Of a stretch of 64,000 nucleotides of DNA, positions 8,293 to 53,688 are shown one piece after another; the stretch's first letter is position 1, and every line of letters starts with the position of its first letter. The stretch comes from Bacteroidota bacterium. Lineage in GTDB: Bacteria > Bacteroidota > Bacteroidia > Flavobacteriales > Flavobacteriaceae. A program made the position numbers and the translations under genes. The notes beneath the pieces were generated by a model. It saw nothing but the letters and a program-made list of their open reading frames with translations. It was not told where the DNA came from and made no database searches. The stretch covers positions 2,744-66,743 of the forward strand of contig JBCCEC010000012.1 of NCBI GenBank assembly GCA_039030475.1, written 5' to 3'.

Positions 8293-9708
8293 ATGAAAAA
8301 AAAATATGCTATACTTTTTTTTGCCACATTTTTGTTTCAAAGTGCGTTTACGCAAGAATTAGTACTTAAAAAAGGAAAGATTATAGATTCGCTGGTTGTC
8401 AACGATACCATTCCAGACACATTTTCTCTTTACTTGCCCACTAACTTTACGACCACCAAAAAGTGGCCATTACTTATGGTATTTGATTTGGATGGAAAAG
8501 AGCGGCAGTCAATGGCCATGTTCTTGCAGGCAGCCGAGGAGGAGGGGTATCTATTGGCGGCACCAAAACTGTCCGACACGGTTCCCTTATCCAACAATAT
8601 GATAAGCGCGAGCAATGTTCTAAATAAAATATCGCGCATTTTACCTGTTAATAAATCGAGGGTGTACACTGCGGGTATTTCTTCTGGGGGGCGTTTTGCC
8701 AATCTGGTTCCAATTTTTATAAAAGACGTGGCAGGTACTATTTCTGCAGGTGCTTCTATTGCGAATTCAGACTTATTAAACCCTAAGCGTTCTTTTCATT
8801 TTATTGGAATCATCGGAAAAAATGATTTCAACTACACCCAAATGCTAAATGTTGAAAAGGTTTTCGATCGGTTTAAGTTTCCCAATCAGATATTGTTGTA
8901 TGACGAAGAACAAAAATGGCCAGATGTAAAATATTTTCAAAAAGCCATGCAGCTATTTACACTGTCGGCAATGGGGAAAAAATTGACGCCCATGGATTCC
9001 AGTTATATTGAAAAGGCCTTTAAGGAAGATTTAGCCAAAGTCAATAGGTTGAAGAATTCGAACAAGCTACTCTTTGCAGAACAATACATGGGAGAGATGA
9101 TGTCCATTTATGGTGTACACAAAAACCTGGATTCTTTGCGGCAAGTTCAAAAAAACCTGAGACGGGACCGTGTGTTCAAAGGAATGAGAAGGGCAGAAAA
9201 CGCAACGTTCTTTAAAGAATCGCTTTTAAAAGAAGATTATCAATATTATATAGAAGAAGATGTGGTTACCCATAATTTTAATAATCTGGGTTGGTGGAAT
9301 TATCAAATGACAGAGATCAATAAGTTTATTTCGGCCAGTAGTATTTATGAAAGGCAAATGGGAAATCGTCTGTTGGGCTATGTTAATGCGTTGGCAGAAG
9401 ATAATATTGATATGGTTAAATCCGAACCGCTTATAGATGAGGATGCACTTGCATTTTTATATATGCTAAAGACCATTTTGGAGCCTGAGAACTTTGAACA
9501 TTACATGAACATAATATCTTTAAGTGCAAAGAACGAAGATTACGGGACTGCCCTGTTTTATCTAGAAGAAGCCCTAAAGAAAGGTTTTGATGACAAAGAA
9601 AAATTGTATAATCTGCCAGATACTGGCTTGTTTAGAATAACACCAAAATTCAATGAGTTGGTGGCTAAGTATTTGAAGGATTCAAGGTATCGAATTAACG
9701 ACCAATAA
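8293..9708 (+). CDS. Secreted alpha/beta hydrolase (esterase-like) with C-terminal helical/TPR-like region
   Basis: Signal peptide; nucleophile elbow GISSG; KWPLLMVFD. Confidence 0.7.
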   Translation: MKKKYAILFFATFLFQSAFTQELVLKKGKIIDSLVVNDTIPDTFSLYLPTNFTTTKKWPLLMVFDLDGKERQSMAMFLQAAEEEGYLLAAPKLSDTVPLSNNMISASNVLNKISRILPVNKSRVYTAGISSGGRFANLVPIFIKDVAGTISAGASIANSDLLNPKRSFHFIGIIGKNDFNYTQMLNVEKVFDRFKFPNQILLYDEEQKWPDVKYFQKAMQLFTLSAMGKKLTPMDSSYIEKAFKEDLAKVNRLKNSNKLLFAEQYMGEMMSIYGVHKNLDSLRQVQKNLRRDRVFKGMRRAENATFFKESLLKEDYQYYIEEDVVTHNFNNLGWWNYQMTEINKFISASSIYERQMGNRLLGYVNALAEDNIDMVKSEPLIDEDALAFLYMLKTILEPENFEHYMNIISLSAKNEDYGTALFYLEEALKKGFDDKEKLYNLPDTGLFRITPKFNELVAKYLKDSRYRINDQ

Positions 9709-10432
9709 ATCTTGGGATTTCCTCTAAATCCCAATCAATAACAAGACCTTTAGCGAGAGACGCTGCGATTTCTTTTCCATATAAATGTTCGCAAAGGTAG
9801 AGTGCTGCCTCAAAGCTTTTGGCGCCGCCAGCGGAAGTAATGTATTTTCCATCGTGCACAAAAAGGACGCTATCCTTTACTTTTAATTGCGGAAACATAG
9901 CTTTATACTTTTCGATATCACTGGGAAATGTGGTAGATGCCACATCGTTTAAAAGTCCAGCTTTTGCCAAAACAAAAGCTCCATCGCAATGCGAGGTGAC
10001 AAATAAAGCTTCTTTGTCCACTTTTTGCACAAAATCCAGCATTATGGAATCCCTTAAGTCGGTATCTAAATGGTGTGCTGCGCTCGGTACGACTAAAATG
10101 TCAATTTTGGGAATTGAGTCCTTTGTGTAATCAAAATCGGGTAAAATCCGAACTCCTTCAAAAGAAGTTATAGGCTCCAATGTATTGGCAACAGAAAAGG
10201 TGTTCATGGATTTGATGTTCTCCCGGAACTGTGTATGCTGGAAAATATCATAGGGTGCTGTGAATTCTGTGTTGTAAACACCATCCATTATTAAAAATGC
10301 GACATTGTATCTTCCAGACTCCAGCTCAGGAAGTTTTCTTTTTAGTTCTTTTGAAGCATTTGCTTGTTGTTGTTTGTCAACACAGGAAACGGACAAAATC
10401 AAGAGCAATATGAATATCAGATGTTTTATCAC
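9695..10432 (-). CDS. DJ-1/PfpI family lipoprotein
   Basis: Lipobox SVSC; TEFTAPYDIF, TSHCDGAFVLA, ITSAG. Confidence 0.88.
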   Translation of the reverse strand: MIKHLIFILLLILSVSCVDKQQQANASKELKRKLPELESGRYNVAFLIMDGVYNTEFTAPYDIFQHTQFRENIKSMNTFSVANTLEPITSFEGVRILPDFDYTKDSIPKIDILVVPSAAHHLDTDLRDSIMLDFVQKVDKEALFVTSHCDGAFVLAKAGLLNDVASTTFPSDIEKYKAMFPQLKVKDSVLFVHDGKYITSAGGAKSFEAALYLCEHLYGKEIAASLAKGLVIDWDLEEIPRFIGR

Positions 10433-46842: not shown

Positions 46843-46865
46843 TTATTTAAATCAAGTCTAAATAA
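46843..46865. promoter_or_regulatory. Putative Fur box 1 (7-9-7)
   Basis: TTATTTA-aatcaagtc-TAAATAA, adjacent to the -33 box. Confidence 0.7.
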
Positions 46866-46866
46866 A

Positions 46867-46898
46867 TTTGTCACATTGATTTTCTAAAGATATATTTG
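46867..46898 (+). promoter_or_regulatory. Bacteroidota promoter of the DUF4856 operon
   Basis: TTTG 46867-46870, 20-nt spacer, TATATTTG 46891-46898. Confidence 0.8.
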
Positions 46899-46907
46899 CC
46901 TTCGAAA

Positions 46908-46930
46908 TTATTTTTAAATAATCTAAATAA
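46908..46930. promoter_or_regulatory. Putative Fur box 2
   Basis: TTATTTT-taaataatc-TAAATAA between promoter and ATG. Confidence 0.65.
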
Positions 46931-46938
46931 ACTATACA

Positions 46939-48165
46939 ATGCTTCTAAAAAGATTTTTCTTTTTTTCGTTTGCCGGTCTATTTCTTCTTTCTTGTTCTGA
47001 AGATGATGATTCAGATGACACGAGTCCAGATGAAATAACTATTGAAAACCCCGCGACCTACACATTCACAAGAAACGGGGAATCTACGGTCAGTTTTGGA
47101 GGTCAAACTACCAGAATTCAAATGGGTGAAGAGCTCAACGATAAGCTTTTGGATGAAACTGCTACCGAAGCTGTGTTGGATGCCATGTTTGCTCATGAAG
47201 AAGGGGAAAATAATTTTTCAAATCCGGATTTAAATGCATCTGATAAGAGCATTCGCAGTAAAACGGCGGCTTCAAACGATTTCTTTTCGGCCAATACAGC
47301 AGACCAGGGATTAATTAGGGCCGATTTTGAAGATTGGATAAAAAAACAAGTCGATGATGTTTTTACTAGATGGAATGATGCCGCTGCTGAAGGTGAAGCA
47401 GGTCAAATCGCAGATGGTTCCTCAACTAGATATGTGAGTGCTCAAGGGTTGGAGTACAATCAATTGGTCAACAAAGGCTTAATAGGTGCGTTGATGGTAG
47501 ATCAAGCACTTAACAATTATTTGGGAAAAGGAGTTCTTGATGCTGGAGAGAACATTGCCGAGAATGATGCAGGTACCGTTGAAGAAGGAAAAAACTATAC
47601 GACCATGGAACACAAATGGGATGAAGCGTATGGTTATGCTTATGGATTGAATGCAGATCCAGCCAATCCAAATGATGATTTGGGAGCGGATGATTTCTTG
47701 AATAAATATATAGGTAGGGTAGAAGGTGACTCAGATTTTACCGGAATCGCAGATGATATTTATCAAGCATTTAAGCTAGGTAGAGCAGCTATTGTTGCGA
47801 AAGACTATACAACGCGTGATGAGCAGGCCGAAATTATCAAAGGATTGATTTCAGAAGTTATTGGGATAAGAGCGGTTTACTATTTACAACAGGCAAAAAA
47901 TCTACTTGATCAAGAAAATCCTGATTTTGGTGGTGCTTTTCATGATTTATCCGAAGGCTATGGATTTATCTATAGTCTACAGTTTACAAGAAAGCCCAAT
48001 ACCGATGCACCCTATTTTACCAAAGCAGAGGTAGATGCATTTCTTGTTGATTTAATGGATGATGGAGTCAATGGTTTATGGAATGTATCCACTACGACCC
48101 TGGACGAAATTTCTGAAGCTATCGCATCAGAATTTGACTTCACTTTGGAACAAGCAGCGGAGTAA
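46939..48165 (+). CDS. DUF4856-like acidic lipoprotein
   Basis: Lipobox LLSC; acidic linker; MEHKWDEAYGY, FHDLSEGYGFIYSL. Confidence 0.85.
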   Translation: MLLKRFFFFSFAGLFLLSCSEDDDSDDTSPDEITIENPATYTFTRNGESTVSFGGQTTRIQMGEELNDKLLDETATEAVLDAMFAHEEGENNFSNPDLNASDKSIRSKTAASNDFFSANTADQGLIRADFEDWIKKQVDDVFTRWNDAAAEGEAGQIADGSSTRYVSAQGLEYNQLVNKGLIGALMVDQALNNYLGKGVLDAGENIAENDAGTVEEGKNYTTMEHKWDEAYGYAYGLNADPANPNDDLGADDFLNKYIGRVEGDSDFTGIADDIYQAFKLGRAAIVAKDYTTRDEQAEIIKGLISEVIGIRAVYYLQQAKNLLDQENPDFGGAFHDLSEGYGFIYSLQFTRKPNTDAPYFTKAEVDAFLVDLMDDGVNGLWNVSTTTLDEISEAIASEFDFTLEQAAE

Positions 48166-48200
48166 GTCTTGTTGTTAAGCGTTAATCTAACTTTTTAAGC

Positions 48201-48240
48201 AAAAGGAATGGATTTTACTAAGGTAAAATCCATTCCTTTT
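48201..48240 (+). terminator. 18-bp perfect intra-operon hairpin with U-tail
   Basis: AAAAGGAATGGATTTTAC-taag-GTAAAATCCATTCCTTTT. Confidence 0.75.
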
Positions 48241-48282
48241 ATTACTTTTGAACCTTTTACTTAGAATAAATAAAAACAAAAA

Positions 48283-49416
48283 ATGAAAAAATATTGGTAT
48301 TTTCTTTTTGCAGTTCCATTTCTTATTTGGGCGTGTTCTTCAGATTCCAATGACGGCGACGGTACTGGGGAGGATGAGGTTCCCGTTACATTCGATAGAA
48401 GCGCTATGTTGGTAAATTGGGCCGATAACATAATAGTCCCTGCGTACCAATCTTTTTCTGCCAAACTCACCACTTTGGAAGAATCGTACGAAAATTTTGC
48501 TTCGGATAGGAGTGTCGATAACTTAACTGCTTTTCGGGCTGCATGGTTAGACGCTTACACTGCATGGCAACAAGTCTCTTTGTTCGAAACAGGTCCCGCA
48601 GAAACTGTGGGGTATCGCCTGAACATGAATACGTATCCTACGGATATCGACTTGATAGAATCACATATTGCCGATGGTAATTATGACCTTTCTCTGCCAT
48701 CAAATAGAGATGCAAAAGGATTCCCTGCTTTAGATTACCTATTAAATGGATTGGAAACTGACGATGTTGCGTTGGTCAACAGATTGGCTAGTGGCACAGA
48801 AGCTGACGATACTTTAGCTTATGTCGATGCTGTGATTTCAGATATGAAATCTTTAACGGACGATGTTGTTGGACAATGGACAGGTGATTATCGCGATACT
48901 TTCGTAGAAAATGATGGTTCTTCATCAACCGCATCTGTAGATCGCTTTGTGAACGATTATATCTTCTACTACGAAAAGTTCCTTCGAGCTGGGAAAATGG
49001 GAATTCCCTTGGGCGTCTTCACAGGGGAAACCGCTCCTAACACAATTGAAGCCTTCTATAAAGCAGACATAAGCAATACACTTTTTTTAGAAGGTTTAAC
49101 CGCAGTACAGGATTTCTTTAATGGAAAGCATTTCAATTCATCAACAACTGGTGAAAGTTTGGCATCGTATCTTGCGGATTTAAATTCCGTAAAAGACGGT
49201 GATGATTTGTCAGAACTTATCAATAGCCAATTGAATACGGCCCGTACTGCAGTCTCAGGTTTGGATACTTTTAGAAGTGAAATTGAAAACAACGATACCC
49301 CTACCACTATGAATATGGCTTATGATGAGGTCCAACGAGCTGTCCCGCTCTTTAAGGTAGATATGGTATCGGCAATGAGTATCAGTATTGATTTTGTTGA
49401 TGCTGATGGAGATTAG
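48283..49416 (+). CDS. Imelysin-like (M75) lipoprotein
   Basis: Lipobox IWAC; NWADNIIVPAY, WLDAYTAWQ, KGFPALDYLL. Confidence 0.85.
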   Translation: MKKYWYFLFAVPFLIWACSSDSNDGDGTGEDEVPVTFDRSAMLVNWADNIIVPAYQSFSAKLTTLEESYENFASDRSVDNLTAFRAAWLDAYTAWQQVSLFETGPAETVGYRLNMNTYPTDIDLIESHIADGNYDLSLPSNRDAKGFPALDYLLNGLETDDVALVNRLASGTEADDTLAYVDAVISDMKSLTDDVVGQWTGDYRDTFVENDGSSSTASVDRFVNDYIFYYEKFLRAGKMGIPLGVFTGETAPNTIEAFYKADISNTLFLEGLTAVQDFFNGKHFNSSTTGESLASYLADLNSVKDGDDLSELINSQLNTARTAVSGLDTFRSEIENNDTPTTMNMAYDEVQRAVPLFKVDMVSAMSISIDFVDADGD

Positions 49417-50784
49417 ATGTCCTTATCCTTTTCCAAATATTTAAAAACAACTATAGAGGCCGCCCCTTTGGCGGTCTTTCGTATTCTTTTTGGTATCATG
49501 ATGCTGATCAGCATCATTCGTTTTTGGGCAAACGGCTGGATTGAAAAACTGTATTTGGAACCAAAATTTCACTTTTCCTATTATGGTTTCGAGTGGGTGA
49601 AACCTTTGGGCAATGCAACTTATTTAATCTTCGTTATTTGTGCCCTTGCATCAATCGGTGTAGCACTGGGGTATAAGTACCGACTGTCCATTTTGGTTTT
49701 TTTCCTTTCGTTTACGTATATCGAGTTAATGGATAAGACCACATACCTCAATCATTATTATTTTATTAGTGCGCTATCTTTTCTAATGATTTTTTTACCG
49801 GCAAACGTATACTATGCGCTCGATGCTAAAAAAAATCCTGAAAGCGCTTTTCAGTATATTCCCAAATGGACGGTTGATGCTTTAAAATTGATGTTGGGCA
49901 TCGTTTACTTTTACGCGGGATTGGCAAAGCTGAATTCTGATTGGTTGGTAAAAGCAATGCCTTTAAAGATTTGGCTGCCTTCCAAATTCGATGTTCCATT
50001 GATAGGGGAACTTATGGGAAAAGAGTGGGTGCATTATGCGTTTTGTTGGGGAGGTGCTGCGTATGACCTTGCAATTCCATTTCTTCTATTATATGCTAAA
50101 ACGCGGTACGTTGCCTTTTTCTTGGTGGTTGTATTTCATATATTGACACGGGTACTGTTTCCAATTGGAATGTTCCCATATATTATGATTGTTTCAGCCC
50201 TTATTTTTTTTGATGCGAGGTTTCATAATAACATATTGAAATACCTTTCACGATTGGTAAAAATCACTAAAAACAACTTCGATAACAACAAAACTTTAGC
50301 GTTTACTACCAGTCTTTCAAACCAGTTGCGATATATAGTAGTACTCTTGTTTTTTGCAATACAGCTTGCCTTTCCTTGGAGGTATCTTTTATATCCCGGA
50401 GAATTATTTTGGACAGAGGAGGGATATCGTTTTTCATGGAGGGTAATGTTGATGGAAAAATCGGGCTATGCCCAGTTTAAAATTGTTGATAAGGAAAACG
50501 GGAAATGGTTTTATGTTGACAATACCGATTTCATAACCTCTTTTCAAGAAAAACAAATGGCTTTTCAGCCAGATTTTATTGTGGAATATGCCCACTATTT
50601 AAAAAATCATTTTAAGGCACAAGGCCATAAGAATATTGGAGTTTACGTAGAGAGTTACGTAGCTCTTAACGGTAGATTGAGCCAACCGTTCATAGACCCC
50701 AAAACAGATTTGACCAAAGAACATGATTCATTTAAACATAAAACATGGATACTTCCATTTAGGGATGAGATCAAAGGTATTTAA
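49417..50784 (+). CDS. HTTM / vitamin-K-dependent gamma-carboxylase-like membrane protein
   Basis: LAVFRILFG, MDKTTYLNHYY (H113), YFYAGLAKLNSDW (K171), IGMFPY, FSWRVM, YVALNGR..FIDP. Confidence 0.88.
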   Translation: MSLSFSKYLKTTIEAAPLAVFRILFGIMMLISIIRFWANGWIEKLYLEPKFHFSYYGFEWVKPLGNATYLIFVICALASIGVALGYKYRLSILVFFLSFTYIELMDKTTYLNHYYFISALSFLMIFLPANVYYALDAKKNPESAFQYIPKWTVDALKLMLGIVYFYAGLAKLNSDWLVKAMPLKIWLPSKFDVPLIGELMGKEWVHYAFCWGGAAYDLAIPFLLLYAKTRYVAFFLVVVFHILTRVLFPIGMFPYIMIVSALIFFDARFHNNILKYLSRLVKITKNNFDNNKTLAFTTSLSNQLRYIVVLLFFAIQLAFPWRYLLYPGELFWTEEGYRFSWRVMLMEKSGYAQFKIVDKENGKWFYVDNTDFITSFQEKQMAFQPDFIVEYAHYLKNHFKAQGHKNIGVYVESYVALNGRLSQPFIDPKTDLTKEHDSFKHKTWILPFRDEIKGI

Positions 50785-53215
50785 GAGTACAGTTTTTTTG
50801 CTGCTATTTTCCATTTTGGTGCAAGCCCAAACGAGTTTTTCCGGTGTAGTAACAGGTATTGACAATCAGCCCATTTCTGGAGCGGAAGTCTACCTTAAGG
50901 AATTGGAATTACTAACAACCACATCGACAACGGGAAATTTTTATTTTGATAACATTTTACAAGGAAGCTACAATTTGGTTGTTTTTGCCTATGGCTACAA
51001 GGTTTATGAGCAGAATATAAATACATCAAGTCAAGATTTGGCTATTTCTCTTGAACCGATAGGGGAGAAACTGTCCGAAGTGGTTTTAACCAAAGAACGG
51101 GAAAAAGTATTTGCGCTGCGAAACCTTAGAAAAGTTGAAGGAACCGCTATATATGCAGGTAAGAAGACAGAGGTAGTGGCAATTGATTTGATCACAGGTA
51201 ATTTAGCATCAAACAATGCACGTCAGATTTACGGTCAAGTCGTAGGACTAAATATATATGATAACGGTGATGCCGGACTGCAGTTAAATATTGGGGGAAG
51301 GGGTTTAGATCCAAATCGTACCGCAAATTTTAATGTACGCCAGAATGGTTACGATATCAGTGCCGATGTCTTAGGGTATCCAGAAAGCTATTATACACCA
51401 CCAGTAGAAGCTTTGAATGAAATACAGGTTGTACGTGGAGCAGCATCTTTACAGTATGGAACACAATTTGGAGGCTTGATCAACTTTAAGTTTAGGCGAC
51501 CCAATCCAAATAAAAAAATAGAACTGATATCTCGACAGACCATCGGATCAAATGGTTTGTTCACTAGTTTTAATAGCTTGAGCGGTACTTCGGGCAAGTT
51601 TAGTTATTATAACTATTTTAATTACAAGCAAGGCGATGGCTTTCGACCAAATTCAAATTTTAATGCTAGAAACTATCACGGTCATTTTGGGTATCAAATA
51701 TCTGAAAAGACAAAACTTACTTTCGAGGCTACTATACTGGACTATTTGGCGCAACAACCGGGAGGATTGACGGATGTGCAGTTCAATGAAGACCCTACCT
51801 TTAGCAACCGAGAACGCAATTGGTTCGATATTGATTGGAAGTTGGGTTCTTTACGTTTGGATCATAGCTTCTCGCCAGCAACAGATTTTAGCCTCAATCT
51901 ATTTGCATTGGATGCGTCGCGGAAAGCCTTAGGATTTAGGGAAAACAGAGTGGATATAATTGACGAGGGGGGCGTTCGAGAATTATTAGTCGATGATTTT
52001 CAGAATTGGGGTGCAGAAGCCCGCTTGCTATCACGTTATAAAATTGGTCAAAAAGATGCGATTTTTTTAATAGGGTCTAAGTATTATCAGGCGTTTAATA
52101 AACAACGCCAGGGAGCTGGCCCTGCGACAACGGCTCCAGATTTCGATTTTGTGGATGAGGAATTCCCTGCATTTCCAAGAAAATCCAGCTATAATTTCCC
52201 CAACTTAAACTTGGCCATTTTTGGAGAGAATATCATTAATTTGAGTGACCGTTTTTCAATCACACCTGGCTTTCGTTTTGAGTATATAAAAACATCTGCT
52301 ACTGGTAATTTTACCGCGATATTTACCGATTTGGCCGGTAATGTTTTAGAAACCCGTATAACCGAGGAAGATCGTGACTTAGAGCGTTCTTTTGTGTTGT
52401 TGGGACTAGGTGCCTCCTATAAACTTAATAAGAGTGTTGAATTTTATGGAAACATATCTCAAAACTATCGTTCTGTGACTTTTAATGATTTAAGGGTAAT
52501 AAATCCATCACAAATCATCAGTGAAGATTTAGAGGATGAAGAGGGCTTTACAGCAGATATTGGTGCAAGAGGTAGGTTTAAGGAATTTTTTTCCTATGAT
52601 ATTAGTAGTTTTTTATTGTATTATGATAATCGAATTTCTAGGACAATTCCATTTGTTGATGATCAAAATAGAGTTAAGAACCTAACGGATAATGCTGGTA
52701 CGGCTGTCATTTATGGCTTGGAACTTCTTGGCGATTGGAATGTAAAAGAAACATTGTTGGATGTTTCGCAAGATATAAAGCTTAACCTATTTGGAAATCT
52801 TGCCTTGACTTCTTCTGAATATATAGAACAAGCAGAGGGAATCAACAATGTAGAAGGGAAAAAGGTTGAACATATACCAGAAATAAACTTTCGTTCTGGA
52901 GTGCGATTTGGCTATAAAGATTTTCTTGGTTCTTTACAGTACACCTATTTATCAAGACAATTTAATGATCCGCAAAATTCGCCGCCTCTTACCGAATCAA
53001 CTGCACCTAGTGCTGGTATTATTGGTGAATTACCAGCTTATGGCATTATGGATTTATCTTTTTCATACGCTTATAAACAGTTCAGGTTAGAAGCAGGTAT
53101 CAACAACCTTTTTAACGAATCTTACTTTACAAGAAGAGCGACAGGATACCCTGGACCCGGAATTATTCCAGCAGAACCAAGGACATTTTATACAACGCTT
53201 CAGATTAAATTGTAA
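50765..53215 (+). CDS. TonB-dependent receptor (FecA-like) with N-terminal extension
   Basis: Signal peptide; plug motifs IGGRGL, EIQVVRGAASLQYG; C-terminal YTTLQIKL; start placed at MRSKVF. Confidence 0.93.
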   Translation: MRSKVFKSTVFLLLFSILVQAQTSFSGVVTGIDNQPISGAEVYLKELELLTTTSTTGNFYFDNILQGSYNLVVFAYGYKVYEQNINTSSQDLAISLEPIGEKLSEVVLTKEREKVFALRNLRKVEGTAIYAGKKTEVVAIDLITGNLASNNARQIYGQVVGLNIYDNGDAGLQLNIGGRGLDPNRTANFNVRQNGYDISADVLGYPESYYTPPVEALNEIQVVRGAASLQYGTQFGGLINFKFRRPNPNKKIELISRQTIGSNGLFTSFNSLSGTSGKFSYYNYFNYKQGDGFRPNSNFNARNYHGHFGYQISEKTKLTFEATILDYLAQQPGGLTDVQFNEDPTFSNRERNWFDIDWKLGSLRLDHSFSPATDFSLNLFALDASRKALGFRENRVDIIDEGGVRELLVDDFQNWGAEARLLSRYKIGQKDAIFLIGSKYYQAFNKQRQGAGPATTAPDFDFVDEEFPAFPRKSSYNFPNLNLAIFGENIINLSDRFSITPGFRFEYIKTSATGNFTAIFTDLAGNVLETRITEEDRDLERSFVLLGLGASYKLNKSVEFYGNISQNYRSVTFNDLRVINPSQIISEDLEDEEGFTADIGARGRFKEFFSYDISSFLLYYDNRISRTIPFVDDQNRVKNLTDNAGTAVIYGLELLGDWNVKETLLDVSQDIKLNLFGNLALTSSEYIEQAEGINNVEGKKVEHIPEINFRSGVRFGYKDFLGSLQYTYLSRQFNDPQNSPPLTESTAPSAGIIGELPAYGIMDLSFSYAYKQFRLEAGINNLFNESYFTRRATGYPGPGIIPAEPRTFYTTLQIKL

Positions 53216-53222
53216 AGCAAAA

Positions 53223-53251
53223 GAAAGCGGCTGAATCCAATAGCCGCTTTC
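53223..53251. terminator. Terminator between convergent TBDR and DUF6686 genes
   Basis: GAAAGCGGCT / AGCCGCTTTC. Confidence 0.8.
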
Positions 53252-53283: not shown

Positions 53284-53634
53284 TTAGTTTTCTATAAACT
53301 GATAATTAATGTCTTTGTGCTTCAGTAGCCTAATCTGCGCTAGCTCAATATGCAACAAATTTTTAATTTCTTCCAATTCTTGTTTGTTTACAAGTATGGT
53401 AAAATACTTATTTCCTACTGAAATTGGTATTTTTCGTTGATTTAGGGATTGAATATGATTTTTTTCCCAGTACGTTACATTCAACCGGAAAATGTATTTT
53501 CTAAAATTTTCAAGTTCCCATTCATAGAATTCAAAACATAGATTGCTGAAGACCAACTGGAAAAGTTTGTTATGATTGCAAAAAGTAAACAATCCATTTT
53601 TAGTTTGGCTTAAAACTTCTATAGATTGGCACAT
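53284..53634 (-). CDS. DUF6686-like protein
   Basis: 116 aa; FQLVFSNLCFEF, ELEEIKNLL pattern. Confidence 0.65.
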   Translation of the reverse strand: MCQSIEVLSQTKNGLFTFCNHNKLFQLVFSNLCFEFYEWELENFRKYIFRLNVTYWEKNHIQSLNQRKIPISVGNKYFTILVNKQELEEIKNLLHIELAQIRLLKHKDINYQFIEN

Positions 53635-53665: not shown

Positions 53666-53688
53666 TTATTTATAATGGGTCTAAATAA
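53666..53688. promoter_or_regulatory. Putative Fur box 3
   Basis: TTATTTA-taatgggtc-TAAATAA, same 7-9-7 geometry, 32 nt upstream of the DUF6686-like start. Confidence 0.65.

Follow-up and report, generated by a model that had tools for sequence, protein, structure and literature searches.

A GGCX-type membrane enzyme in a predicted Fur-controlled imelysin operon of Bacteroidota

Four consecutive genes of a flavobacterial contig – encoding, in this order, a DUF4856 lipoprotein, an imelysin lipoprotein, an HTTM protein and a TonB-dependent receptor – make up a real, uncharacterised variant of the imelysin iron-uptake systems. Their sequences, and the analogy with related operons, strongly support the view that this cassette is a Fur-repressed outer-membrane uptake system, widespread among Bacteroidota and switched on when iron runs short. 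The HTTM protein is, on alignment and modelled structure alike, a true homologue of human GGCX, and we consider it very probable that the cassette is an iron-regulated one that contains such a homologue. The analysis started from 64,000 nucleotides of contig JBCCEC010000012.1 (assembly GCA_039030475.1, positions 2,744 to 66,743), here called the window, from whose first letter all coordinates are counted.

Operon layout and conservation

All four genes lie on the + strand within 46939-53215, where the earlier note had placed a four-gene operon, and their open reading frames carry Pfam domains. The DUF4856 gene (46939..48165) and the imelysin gene (48283..49416) are separated by a 117-nt gap; from there on the genes abut or overlap, as had also been claimed. 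The imelysin stop codon occupies 49414-49416 and the ATG of the HTTM gene (49417..50784) follows immediately at 49417, while the receptor gene (50765..53215) overlaps the HTTM gene by 20 nt if it starts at a conserved Met at 50765. The longest receptor frame begins at 50723, but four relatives have in-frame stops in this extension, and it is this comparison with relatives that led us to choose M15 of the longest frame as the probable start.

The gap between the first two genes contains a perfect 18-bp hairpin (48201..48240, + strand); since a stem of at least 8 bp occurs there in only about 4 of 79 related loci, we regard it as a local feature. Beyond the receptor gene, between it and the convergent DUF6686 gene, a 9-bp GC-rich hairpin (53224..53250) with a T-run on the minus strand is probably a terminator. 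No open reading frame of at least 600 aa occurs within 14 kb of the operon, so that no NRPS adjoins it, in agreement with the earlier note, and a domain search of the operon and the neighbouring frames found no biosynthetic genes.

The receptor has plug, barrel and N-terminal CarboxypepD_reg domains, preceded by the signal peptide MRSKVFKSTVFLLLFSILVQA. With the NCBIfam models it misses the cut-off of every receptor subfamily, and phmmer found no relative of it in the PDB.

A survey of synteny across Bacteroidota finds the arrangement conserved: contig ends aside, 80 of 80 related loci have all four genes in this order, which recurs in three other lineages of Bacteroidota, namely Rhodocaloribacter, Kapaibacteria and Portibacter. 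A sample of 251 Bacteroidota genomes contains 32 with DUF4856, of which 30 have a VKGC gene within 3.3 kb of it, and an imelysin gene stands directly upstream of VKGC in 44 of 51 VKGC-bearing genomes. The HTTM gene is linked more tightly to the imelysin gene than to DUF4856, and what stays constant from lineage to lineage is an imelysin gene with an HTTM gene after it. Among the four operon proteins, the HTTM protein is the most conserved (67-77% identity).

Predicted control by iron

The region upstream of the DUF4856 gene contains two copies of a 23-bp inverted repeat with the promoter between them, an arrangement in which operator and promoter overlap. The distal Fur-type box, TTATTTAAATCAAGTCTAAATAA (46843..46865; ATTTA-N9-TAAAT), reaches 30.8 bits with our position weight matrix (PWM), the highest score of any site in the genome, and abuts a TTTG at 46866-46869 that is probably the -33 element. 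It is followed by the -7 element match TATATTTG (46891..46898, + strand), which fits what we take to be the Bacteroidota -7 consensus, TAnnTTTG; many related loci have 'TATATTTG(C/T)' in the corresponding position, and the literature mentions -7 and -33 elements. The proximal box, TTATTTTTAAATAATCTAAATAA (46908..46930, PWM 24.8 bits), is situated downstream of the -7 element and ahead of the start codon, and is likewise conserved in related loci.

Of 76 related loci, 73 have at least two copies of the consensus of these boxes, TTATTTAaAaTtAgTCTAAATAA, ahead of the DUF4856 gene. Sites of at least 22 bits number 10 in the genome, against 0-1 in composition-preserving shuffles, and those outside the operon precede feoB, a second receptor, DUF6607 and a PepSY_TM gene. 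The boxes of the window share the ATTTA-N9-TAAAT architecture with ATTTAGAATTATTCTAAAT, an EMSA-tested Fur box of Riemerella anatipestifer (PMC5609570). In the same species, RAYM_09779-RAYM_09794 are all up-regulated when iron is restricted and in a fur mutant (PMC5609570); by annotation they have the identical order – receptor, 'vitamin K-dependent gamma-carboxylase', imelysin, hypothetical – their orthology resting on annotation and gene order. They appear in a table of that paper, which leaves the carboxylase homologue without discussion. Taken together, the conserved boxes, the same motif at feoB and at another receptor, and the published induction in Riemerella make iron control of the operon, as the earlier note had suspected, well supported by sequence and analogy.

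The HTTM protein as a GGCX homologue

The HTTM protein (455 aa; PF05090, E 2.5e-81; PF22777 VKGC_lumenal_dom, E 8.7e-63) has the HTTM membrane domain of GGCX, the first part of its lumenal domain, and with them the GGCX fold that marks the VKGC family. By phmmer, residues 12-448 align with human residues 58-505 (E 1e-47; 30% identity over 430 aligned positions), and the AlphaFold model (pLDDT 89.5) superposes on GGCX cryo-EM structures (Foldseek E ~1e-24, TM 0.82-0.84). The motifs LNH113YY and AGLAK171LNSDW are where they had been reported, and the His-Lys spacing is indeed 58 in both enzymes, the alignment pairing H113 with H160 and K171 with K218 with no indel between the motifs. The claimed likeness to GGCX along the whole length stands for the bacterial protein, all of which aligns, but not for the human one, in which residues 506-758 are left unmatched.

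In the GGCX structure paper, Lys218 with Trp223, Asp263 and Phe286 forms the quinol-deprotonation site, Asn159, His160 and Tyr395 are assigned to the substrate carboxylate, and Phe299 to CO2. Their bacterial equivalents are K171, W176, D217 and F240 for the first group, N112, H113 and Y337 for the second, and F253 for the last. The residues named in that paper were checked across three sets, including 81 orthologues and an alignment of 128 sequences (the query and 127 representatives at 34-70% identity). N159, H160, A214, K218, W223, D263, F286, F299 and M402 (human numbering), shared by the query together with Y395, are invariant in the 81 orthologues and in a paralogue. In the wider alignment N159, H160, K218, W223, F286 and F299 are each kept in at least 125 of 128 sequences, and the quinol-deprotonation site is kept in most (K in 125, W in 127, F in 127 and D in 121 of 128). 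N112, H113 and F253 do not vary. Position 337 is Tyr in the query, and the Tyr395 equivalent is more variable, with 60 Tyr and 21 Phe among the 81 orthologues and 50 F, 39 Y, 17 H and 9 M among the 128 aligned sequences.

The protein also differs from GGCX. Human residues 1-57 and 506-758 – the latter comprising the C-terminal domain and some of the propeptide clamp – have no bacterial counterpart, the human enzyme having 758 aa and the bacterial one ending 7 residues after the end of the alignment. The propeptide exosite, a bipartite lumenal clamp, is not recognisable in the alignment: just two of the clamp residues Y415, Y425, L426, V430 and F431 are identical, namely Y425 and F431. Nor does the alignment with human GGCX retain R436, H440 or the Cys99-Cys450 disulfide pair. 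Human G396 and D400 are replaced by basic residues, namely Arg338 in 113 and Arg342 in 80 of the 128 sequences.

Judged by its residues, the enzyme is probably catalytically competent. Its cofactor would be menaquinone, which, as the earlier note had assumed, is available, since menA is present in the genome; no VKOR homologue passes the cut-off in the host genome, so no quinone epoxide recycling enzyme is evident there. A Leptospira orthologue reportedly has epoxidase activity and no carboxylase activity.

The two lipoproteins

The IPPA family is defined by the change of G-x-H-x-x-E to the Pro variant G-x-P-x-x-E/D (PMC3143127), and the imelysin lipoprotein of the window (377 aa; PF09375, E 1.8e-31) belongs to it: it combines an imelysin domain and a lipoprotein signal (lipobox Cys C18) with the motif G146-F-P-A-L-D151, in which G, F and D are invariant. 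The family profile matches PDB entries 3n8u, 3pf0 and 4ecg. The host, a marine flavobacterium, has only this one imelysin gene in its genome. The protein ends in an invariant V-D-A-D-G-D tail, kept in all HTTM-linked copies examined; it is the most conspicuous acidic feature of the two lipoproteins. The D-x-D-G-D tail is also found in imelysins without an adjacent HTTM gene; one genome has DUF4856, an imelysin with its tail intact and the receptor, and no HTTM gene anywhere. A D-G-D tail is a hallmark of IPPA proteins generally; the Psychrobacter IPPA (PDB 3pf0) has it, and so does a classical imelysin-DHOR-imelysin operon.

The DUF4856 lipoprotein (408 aa; PF16148, E 5.6e-152) has its lipobox Cys at C19 and invariant motifs E224-H-x-W-D-E229 and F334-H-D-L-S-E339. 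Its AlphaFold model is all-alpha (pLDDT 92.8), and matches no fold in the PDB (best E 0.66).

Both lipoproteins are acidic (pI 4.1, D+E 16-19%), and both carry predicted surface-export signals (LES): C19-SEDDD in the DUF4856 protein and C18-SSDSND in the imelysin, with the consensus C-S-S-D-D-D in both families. These N-termini match the known Bacteroidota forms SDDDD and SDDFE, so their wealth of Asp and Glu requires no special explanation. The earlier proposal that the D/E-rich lipoproteins as such are carboxylation targets is not supported in that form: the N-termini match export signals, the acidic imelysin tail also occurs without HTTM, part of the clamp is missing from the enzyme, and its Tyr395 equivalent varies within the family. 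Because of the export signals, any contact of the lipoproteins with an inner-membrane enzyme would be transient. That the enzyme carboxylates some protein or ligand is a possibility.

What the enzyme may do

Like the classical imelysin operons – P. aeruginosa PA4370-PA4373, V. cholerae VC1264-1266 and that of the Psychrobacter IPPA – and like EfeUOB, the cassette appears to be under iron/Fur control; in common with them it has an IPPA-type lipoprotein with the G-x-P-x-x-E/D motif and the C-terminal D-G-D tail, and it pairs an imelysin with an enzyme that would use an oxygen species. The partners differ. The classical operons supply a canonical imelysin and a di-haem peroxidase (DHOR/EfeB), neither of which is found among the operon genes here; instead, the imelysin has as its neighbours DUF4856, a GGCX-type enzyme and a TonB-dependent receptor dedicated to the operon. 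The classical and the HTTM modules stand side by side in some genomes.

We propose that the active enzyme would work at the periplasmic face of the inner membrane, where it would generate a strong base with the help of menaquinol and O2; this base would deprotonate, and probably carboxylate, a carbon adjoining a carboxylate. The substrate would come from the imelysin partner – an acidic residue of that protein, at a stage when its lipid anchor still sits in the inner membrane, or else the ligand that it carries – and the product would be a malonate-type iron-binding group. That the enzyme works on or with the imelysin in this way has, in our estimate, an even chance. That the substrate is a protein residue seems unlikely, and we consider it slightly less likely still that, in full, this minimal GGCX homologue turns Asp or Glu of the imelysin into beta-carboxy-Asp or Gla under iron starvation, with menaquinol, O2 and CO2. 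A candidate site for such a reaction, which would take place before the lipoprotein leaves the inner membrane, is the flexible, invariant D-x-D-G-D tail, where carboxylation would create a malonate-type iron site.

The EfeB and DHOR peroxidases are thought to serve iron redox in other imelysin systems, and the HTTM protein might similarly be a redox partner, with menaquinol, with or without O2, reducing or oxidising the iron delivered by the imelysin and Fe(II) then passing through FeoB. The pairing of D-G-D-tailed IPPA-type imelysins with DHOR in classical operons is consistent with this idea, as are the same Fur-type box at feoB and the lack of an inner-membrane transporter gene in the operon. 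Plain electron transfer, however, needs neither Phe299 nor the Asn159-His160 pair, yet at least 127 of the 128 aligned sequences keep them, and to our knowledge no enzyme of the GGCX family has metal-redox activity. Moreover, HTTM and DHOR occur at the same locus in two genomes, so the former is not a mere replacement for the peroxidase. On balance we consider a redox role improbable.

A decidedly less probable alternative is that a free small molecule in the periplasm, such as an imported ligand or a simple carboxylate, is carboxylated to give a malonate-type chelator or to release iron, with the imelysin not acting as substrate carrier. Its best precedent is MloH of Streptomyces malonomycin biosynthesis (Law et al. 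2018, cited in PMC12647623 and bioRxiv 10.64898/2026.08.19.745780), a bacterial member of the same enzyme family which these sources describe as carboxylating an aspartyl residue, and as acting on a biosynthetic intermediate rather than on a ribosomal protein. The missing human C-terminal part, which contributes to the propeptide clamp, points the same way, and the bacteria-specific Arg338 and the basic residue 342 beside the substrate pocket would suit a small polyanion. By these descriptions, however, MloH belongs to an NRPS/PKS cluster, whereas the HTTM gene lies in a putatively Fur-controlled uptake operon with no biosynthetic genes in it or around it, and a free substrate would leave the tight linkage to the imelysin gene without explanation.

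Finally, it is highly improbable that the HTTM protein is non-catalytic – an assembly or maturation factor for lipoproteins, as its distant relative LMF1 is for lipases, or an inner-membrane passage for imported iron: it is the operon's only inner-membrane protein and is translationally coupled to its neighbours, and the natural cassette devoid of it works or at least persists, but it is also the most conserved protein of the operon, and its full catalytic set is near-invariant in a family that comprises several thousand 50%-identity clusters, which points to selection on chemistry.

If carboxylation of the imelysin were borne out, prokaryotes would have their first Gla-like protein modification, and the large bacterial VKGC family would gain its first physiological protein substrate. 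A relative of the human blood-clotting carboxylase is found in an operon predicted to respond to iron starvation, and its role there is now testable.

The operon and its surroundings

The earlier note described a four-gene operon, and four forward-strand genes do lie at window positions 46939-53215. They encode a 408-residue DUF4856 lipoprotein (PF16148, E 5.6e-152), a 377-residue imelysin lipoprotein (PF09375, E 1.8e-31), a 455-residue HTTM protein that combines an HTTM domain (PF05090, E 2.5e-81) with the lumenal domain of vitamin-K-dependent gamma-glutamyl carboxylases (VKGC; PF22777, E 8.7e-63), and a TonB-dependent receptor with a plug, a barrel and an N-terminal CarboxypepD_reg domain. 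The first two genes are 117 nt apart; the HTTM start codon stands immediately 3' of the imelysin stop codon, and the HTTM and receptor genes overlap by 20 nt if the receptor starts at the Met common to its relatives (50765) – a longer version of its reading frame, from 50723, is broken by stops in four of them. As to ligand class, the receptor scored below every NCBIfam subfamily cut-off, and phmmer found no PDB relative.

The genes on either side (HMG-CoA-lyase-like, LysE, guaB and DUF819) are unrelated, and no large synthetase gene was found near the operon. A DUF6686 gene (116 residues; 53284-53634, reverse strand) is convergent with the receptor gene; found at this place in just 6 of 80 related loci, it was ruled out as a fifth member. 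Between the DUF4856 and imelysin genes lies a hairpin (48201-48240) whose 18-bp stem is perfect and whose loop is 4 nt long; it could serve here as a transcript attenuator or stabiliser; its absence from most relatives rules out a conserved attenuator. A marine metagenome run contains the window sequence, and the search of sequencing runs for transcripts met it in DNA or unclassified runs only.

A minimal relative of human GGCX

In a phmmer search of all PDB chains, the sole match to the HTTM protein was the human carboxylase, GGCX (E 1e-47), with query residues 12-448 corresponding to human 58-505 at 30% identity over 430 aligned positions. The functional residues named by cryo-EM work on GGCX were mapped onto the bacterial protein via the transcribed phmmer alignment. 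Retained are N159 (N112 in the HTTM protein), H160 (H113), A214 (A167), K218 (K171), W223 (W176), D263 (D217), F286 (F240), F299 (F253), Y395 (Y337) and M402 (M344); altered are M401 (to Val), R406 (to Lys), and R436 and H440 (both to Gln), and the human C99-C450 disulfide is missing. Software alignment therefore confirms the sequence motifs that the earlier note had likened to those of GGCX, as well as the distance of 58 between their His and Lys.

An AlphaFold model built from 45 sequences (pLDDT 89.5) has the GGCX fold: in Foldseek, 16 structures of GGCX match it (E down to 6e-25, TM 0.82-0.84), and nothing else does so below E 0.1. The protein combines a complete predicted catalytic set with a GGCX fold. 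The likeness, previously described as running along the whole length, does cover query residues 12-448 but leaves the last 250 human residues without a counterpart: the HTTM protein ends at about human residue 512 and therefore lacks this C-terminal stretch, which in the human enzyme makes up the C-terminal domain and supplies part of the propeptide clamp. The HTTM protein has the fold and the catalytic residues of a VKGC and not its propeptide clamp; 'minimal bacterial VKGC' describes it best. Its closest named relative is from Flagellimonas sp. HMM57 (90% identity).

Across 81 orthologues the catalytic residues are invariant but for Y337 (Tyr in 60, Phe in 21). In a wider alignment of 128 sequences, made up of the query and 127 representatives (34-70% identity), the Asn, His, Lys and Trp positions and those of F286 and F299 are retained in at least 125, the Tyr395 position holds Phe, Tyr, His or Met, Arg338 (human Gly396) is kept in 113, and position 342 (human Asp400) is commonly basic. 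Bacterial VKGC relatives are numerous: clustered at 50% identity, they form 4,980 groups when matches of E up to 0.001 are counted, and 1,721 when the limit is E 1e-30. To our knowledge, MloH is the sole member with a known reaction, and we know of a protein substrate for none. Conservation of the catalytic residues in bacterial orthologues, including that of the flavobacterium Kordia algicida, had already appeared in a published figure.

The window's own genome carries a second GGCX-like paralogue (C6:63466-64785, or 8466-9785 of the fetched locus L083), 439-443 residues long and 37% identical, which is flanked by ribF (FAD synthetase) and serS and has no iron-uptake genes around it. It retains the Asn, His, Lys, Trp, Asp and both Phe residues; the Tyr395 position is occupied by His, and position 401 by Met.

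Probable control by iron

The DUF4856 gene is preceded by a 23-bp inverted repeat in two copies (46843-46865 and 46908-46930), separated by a stretch in which TATATTTG fits the Bacteroidota -7 element. The motif (consensus TTATTTAaAaTtAgTCTAAATAA) is present at least twice in 73 of 76 related loci. When a matrix built from the related-locus sites was run over the whole 4.26-Mb genome at a threshold of 22 bits, it returned 10 sites, against 0-1 in each of five shuffles preserving local composition. Two of the 10 are the operon's own boxes, which match by construction; independent sites precede feoB, a second TonB-dependent receptor gene and a DUF6607 gene, and a weaker one (17.6 bits) abuts a PepSY_TM gene.

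The core of the repeat, ATTTA-N9-TAAAT with TC before TAAAT, is built like the Fur box of Riemerella anatipestifer, ATTTAGAATTATTCTAAAT, and purified Fur bound promoter fragments carrying the Riemerella box (PMC5609570). Consecutive Riemerella genes annotated as TonB-dependent receptor, 'vitamin K-dependent gamma-carboxylase', 'putative lipoprotein imelysin' and hypothetical protein all belong to a set of 17 genes that rose under iron restriction (2.1-3.1) as well as upon loss of fur (1.4-1.9) (PMC5609570), the match to the window operon being one of annotation and gene order. The operon, then, has a Fur-type operator, and the iron regulation proposed for it is backed by the boxes, by the sites at feoB and the second receptor gene, and by the induction of the like-annotated Riemerella operon.

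Two boxes (C42:18211 and C5:44357) lie in less expected places, one preceding the gene for the small subunit of a NiFe-hydrogenase and the other that for a multihaem cytochrome c, which hints that iron-rich respiratory enzymes are controlled by the same regulator. Next to the operon, a strong box (53666-53688, 25.7 bits) lies 32 nt upstream of the DUF6686 start, in a region shared with the guaB promoter.

Distribution of the cassette

A one-genome-per-species scan found at least 582 loci encoding close HTTM relatives. In the best 80 of these – from many Flavobacteriaceae genera and from Roseivirga and Fulvivirga – the four genes stand in the same order in all 80, contig ends aside, and the HTTM protein is the most conserved of the four (67-77% identity). 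The usual neighbours in related loci are the HMG-lyase-like gene (in 54) and guaB (in 49). Zobellia uliginosa is among the carriers of the full cassette, and an HTTM orthologue occurs in Zobellia galactanivorans.

When 251 evenly sampled Bacteroidota genomes were searched, 32 proved to have DUF4856, in 30 cases with a VKGC lumenal domain within 3.3 kb. Loci fetched from this sample show the four-gene order under the HTTM source names Rhodocaloribacter litoris, Candidatus Kapaibacterium and Portibacter marinus; 14 further genomes have the imelysin-HTTM-receptor order with a weak or undetectable DUF4856 relative upstream. An imelysin gene lies directly upstream of VKGC in 44 of the 51 VKGC-bearing genomes, so the imelysin-HTTM pair forms the constant core of a cassette whose order is retained in several lineages across the phylum. 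A natural variant comes from the same family: G239 (locus L094, G239:C16:52000-66000) has DUF4856, imelysin and receptor genes with a 99-nt gap in place of HTTM, and a search throughout that genome found no HTTM domain.

In a different class, genomes of family f27 (for instance locus L084, G028:C1:381000-397000) carry a cassette nearly as similar to those of flavobacteria as these are to one another (against flavobacterial profiles, HTTM scores 799 bits and DUF4856 616 bits), which suggests that the whole cassette has moved by horizontal transfer. The HTTM gene of L084 apparently starts with TTG, two codons past the imelysin stop. One cassette HTTM reading frame (G103:C18:51213-51653) has a single in-frame TGA, and may be a pseudogene or reflect a sequencing error.

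The lipoproteins and the imelysin tail

In both lipoproteins the lipobox Cys is followed by a Ser/Asp-rich stretch, with the consensus C-S-S-D-D-D in both families. [quoted passage not shown]

The DUF4856 protein is modelled confidently as all-alpha (pLDDT 92.8), and Foldseek found no solved relative of this fold in the PDB. Two motifs are invariant in it, E-H-x-W-D-E-A-Y-G-Y and F-H-D-L-S-E-G-Y-G-F; they resemble a His/Glu site that has been duplicated, and the protein may bind metal. A hidden imelysin was rejected, profile-profile alignment having covered the signal peptides only and no PDB fold having matched; nor is DUF4856 among the published lid families of Bacteroides TonB transporters found by text search.

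The window imelysin is of the IPPA type, in which the His of the G-x-H-x-x-E motif is replaced by Pro (G146-F-P-A-L-D151), the same change as in the Psychrobacter protein IPPA (PMC3143127). It ends in an invariant V-D-A-D-G-D, and a D-G-D end is found in every HTTM-linked imelysin examined. Tailed imelysins number 46 in the phylum sample, 44 of them HTTM-linked, and among its 11 canonical imelysins 10 are tailless; within the window's own genome, a D-x-D-G-D end occurs in 2 of 3,583 reading frames of at least 150 residues. As an HTTM-specific substrate tag the tail was nonetheless rejected: HTTM-less G239 has an imelysin ending in V-D-S-D-G-D, the classical imelysin-DHOR-imelysin operon of G172 has the tail on its second imelysin, and the Psychrobacter IPPA chain (3pf0) ends in F-N-S-T-D-G-D, its last six residues being disordered in the crystal (PMC3143127). 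The tail is a hallmark of the IPPA family in general, not proof of a substrate, and its occurrence without a linked HTTM gene makes it less likely to be a carboxylation target.

A possible mechanism and its rivals

That this is an iron-regulated cassette with a GGCX homologue we hold with high confidence; the steps proposed below are graded separately. Upon iron starvation, two surface lipoproteins and a receptor would be made to capture and import an iron species, together with an inner-membrane enzyme, the HTTM protein. The GGCX active site faces the ER lumen, so that of the HTTM protein would lie on the periplasmic side. With menaquinol (menA is present in the genome) and O2, the enzyme – probably catalytically competent – would generate a strong base that deprotonates, and probably carboxylates, a carbon adjoining a carboxylate. 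Because of the gene linkage, the candidate source of that carboxylate is imelysin, which would offer either its ligand or, for as long as it is lipid-anchored in the inner membrane, an acidic residue of its own. We give the coupling to imelysin an even chance, and think it rather unlikely that the substrate is a protein residue. The interpretation in the earlier note is borne out in part: the case for iron regulation and for GGCX homology stands, and carboxylation of the lipoproteins is unproven.

Several findings count against an ordinary GGCX-like cycle. The HTTM protein lacks the C-terminal part that helps to build the propeptide clamp, the Tyr395 position varies, a cassette without HTTM exists and, in the window's own genome, VKOR found sub-threshold matches only, so that a VKOR partner recycling the quinone epoxide was rejected. 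LruB was also set aside as a possible connection to the Leptospira carboxylase orthologue: it lies in a peroxidase-type imelysin operon, and the literature checked shows no such connection.

The main rival, unlikely in our estimate, is a quinol-driven role in iron redox chemistry, by analogy with the peroxidase partners EfeB and DHOR of other imelysin systems. It would account for the common tail and the Fur-boxed feoB, and leaves unexplained why the CO2 pocket and carboxylate-binding residues are retained. In two genomes (loci L096 of G163 and L097 of G079) the imelysin-HTTM-receptor unit adjoins a canonical imelysin and a DHOR di-haem peroxidase; with HTTM and DHOR side by side, HTTM is therefore no simple stand-in for the peroxidase. 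DUF4856 was not found in either locus, which may mean that it and the canonical imelysin/DHOR pair serve as alternative front ends. L097 additionally has a CCP_MauG peroxidase. Carboxylation of a free small molecule by the HTTM protein ranks lower and is improbable, and a non-catalytic role is lower still, at very little chance.

Relation to known systems and significance

Among the Fur-regulated imelysin systems (PA4370-4373, VC1264-1266, EfeUOB), the operon represents a variant: its IPPA-type imelysin is partnered by DUF4856, an enzyme of the GGCX type and a dedicated receptor. Full-text literature searches found HTTM and imelysin together in no paper and DUF4856 mentioned in none; in the literature searched, a carboxylase homologue is listed with imelysin only in four table rows of the Riemerella RNA-seq study, undiscussed (PMC5609570).

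The operon well deserves attention, since it opens the function of bacterial VKGC homologues to testing by giving one of them a defined setting: an iron-starvation condition, a candidate partner in imelysin, and point mutants at K171 and H113. The outcome would bear on how imelysin-based iron uptake works, on the existence of Gla-type chemistry outside eukaryotes, and on O2-dependent menaquinol chemistry for iron acquisition in abundant marine Bacteroidota.
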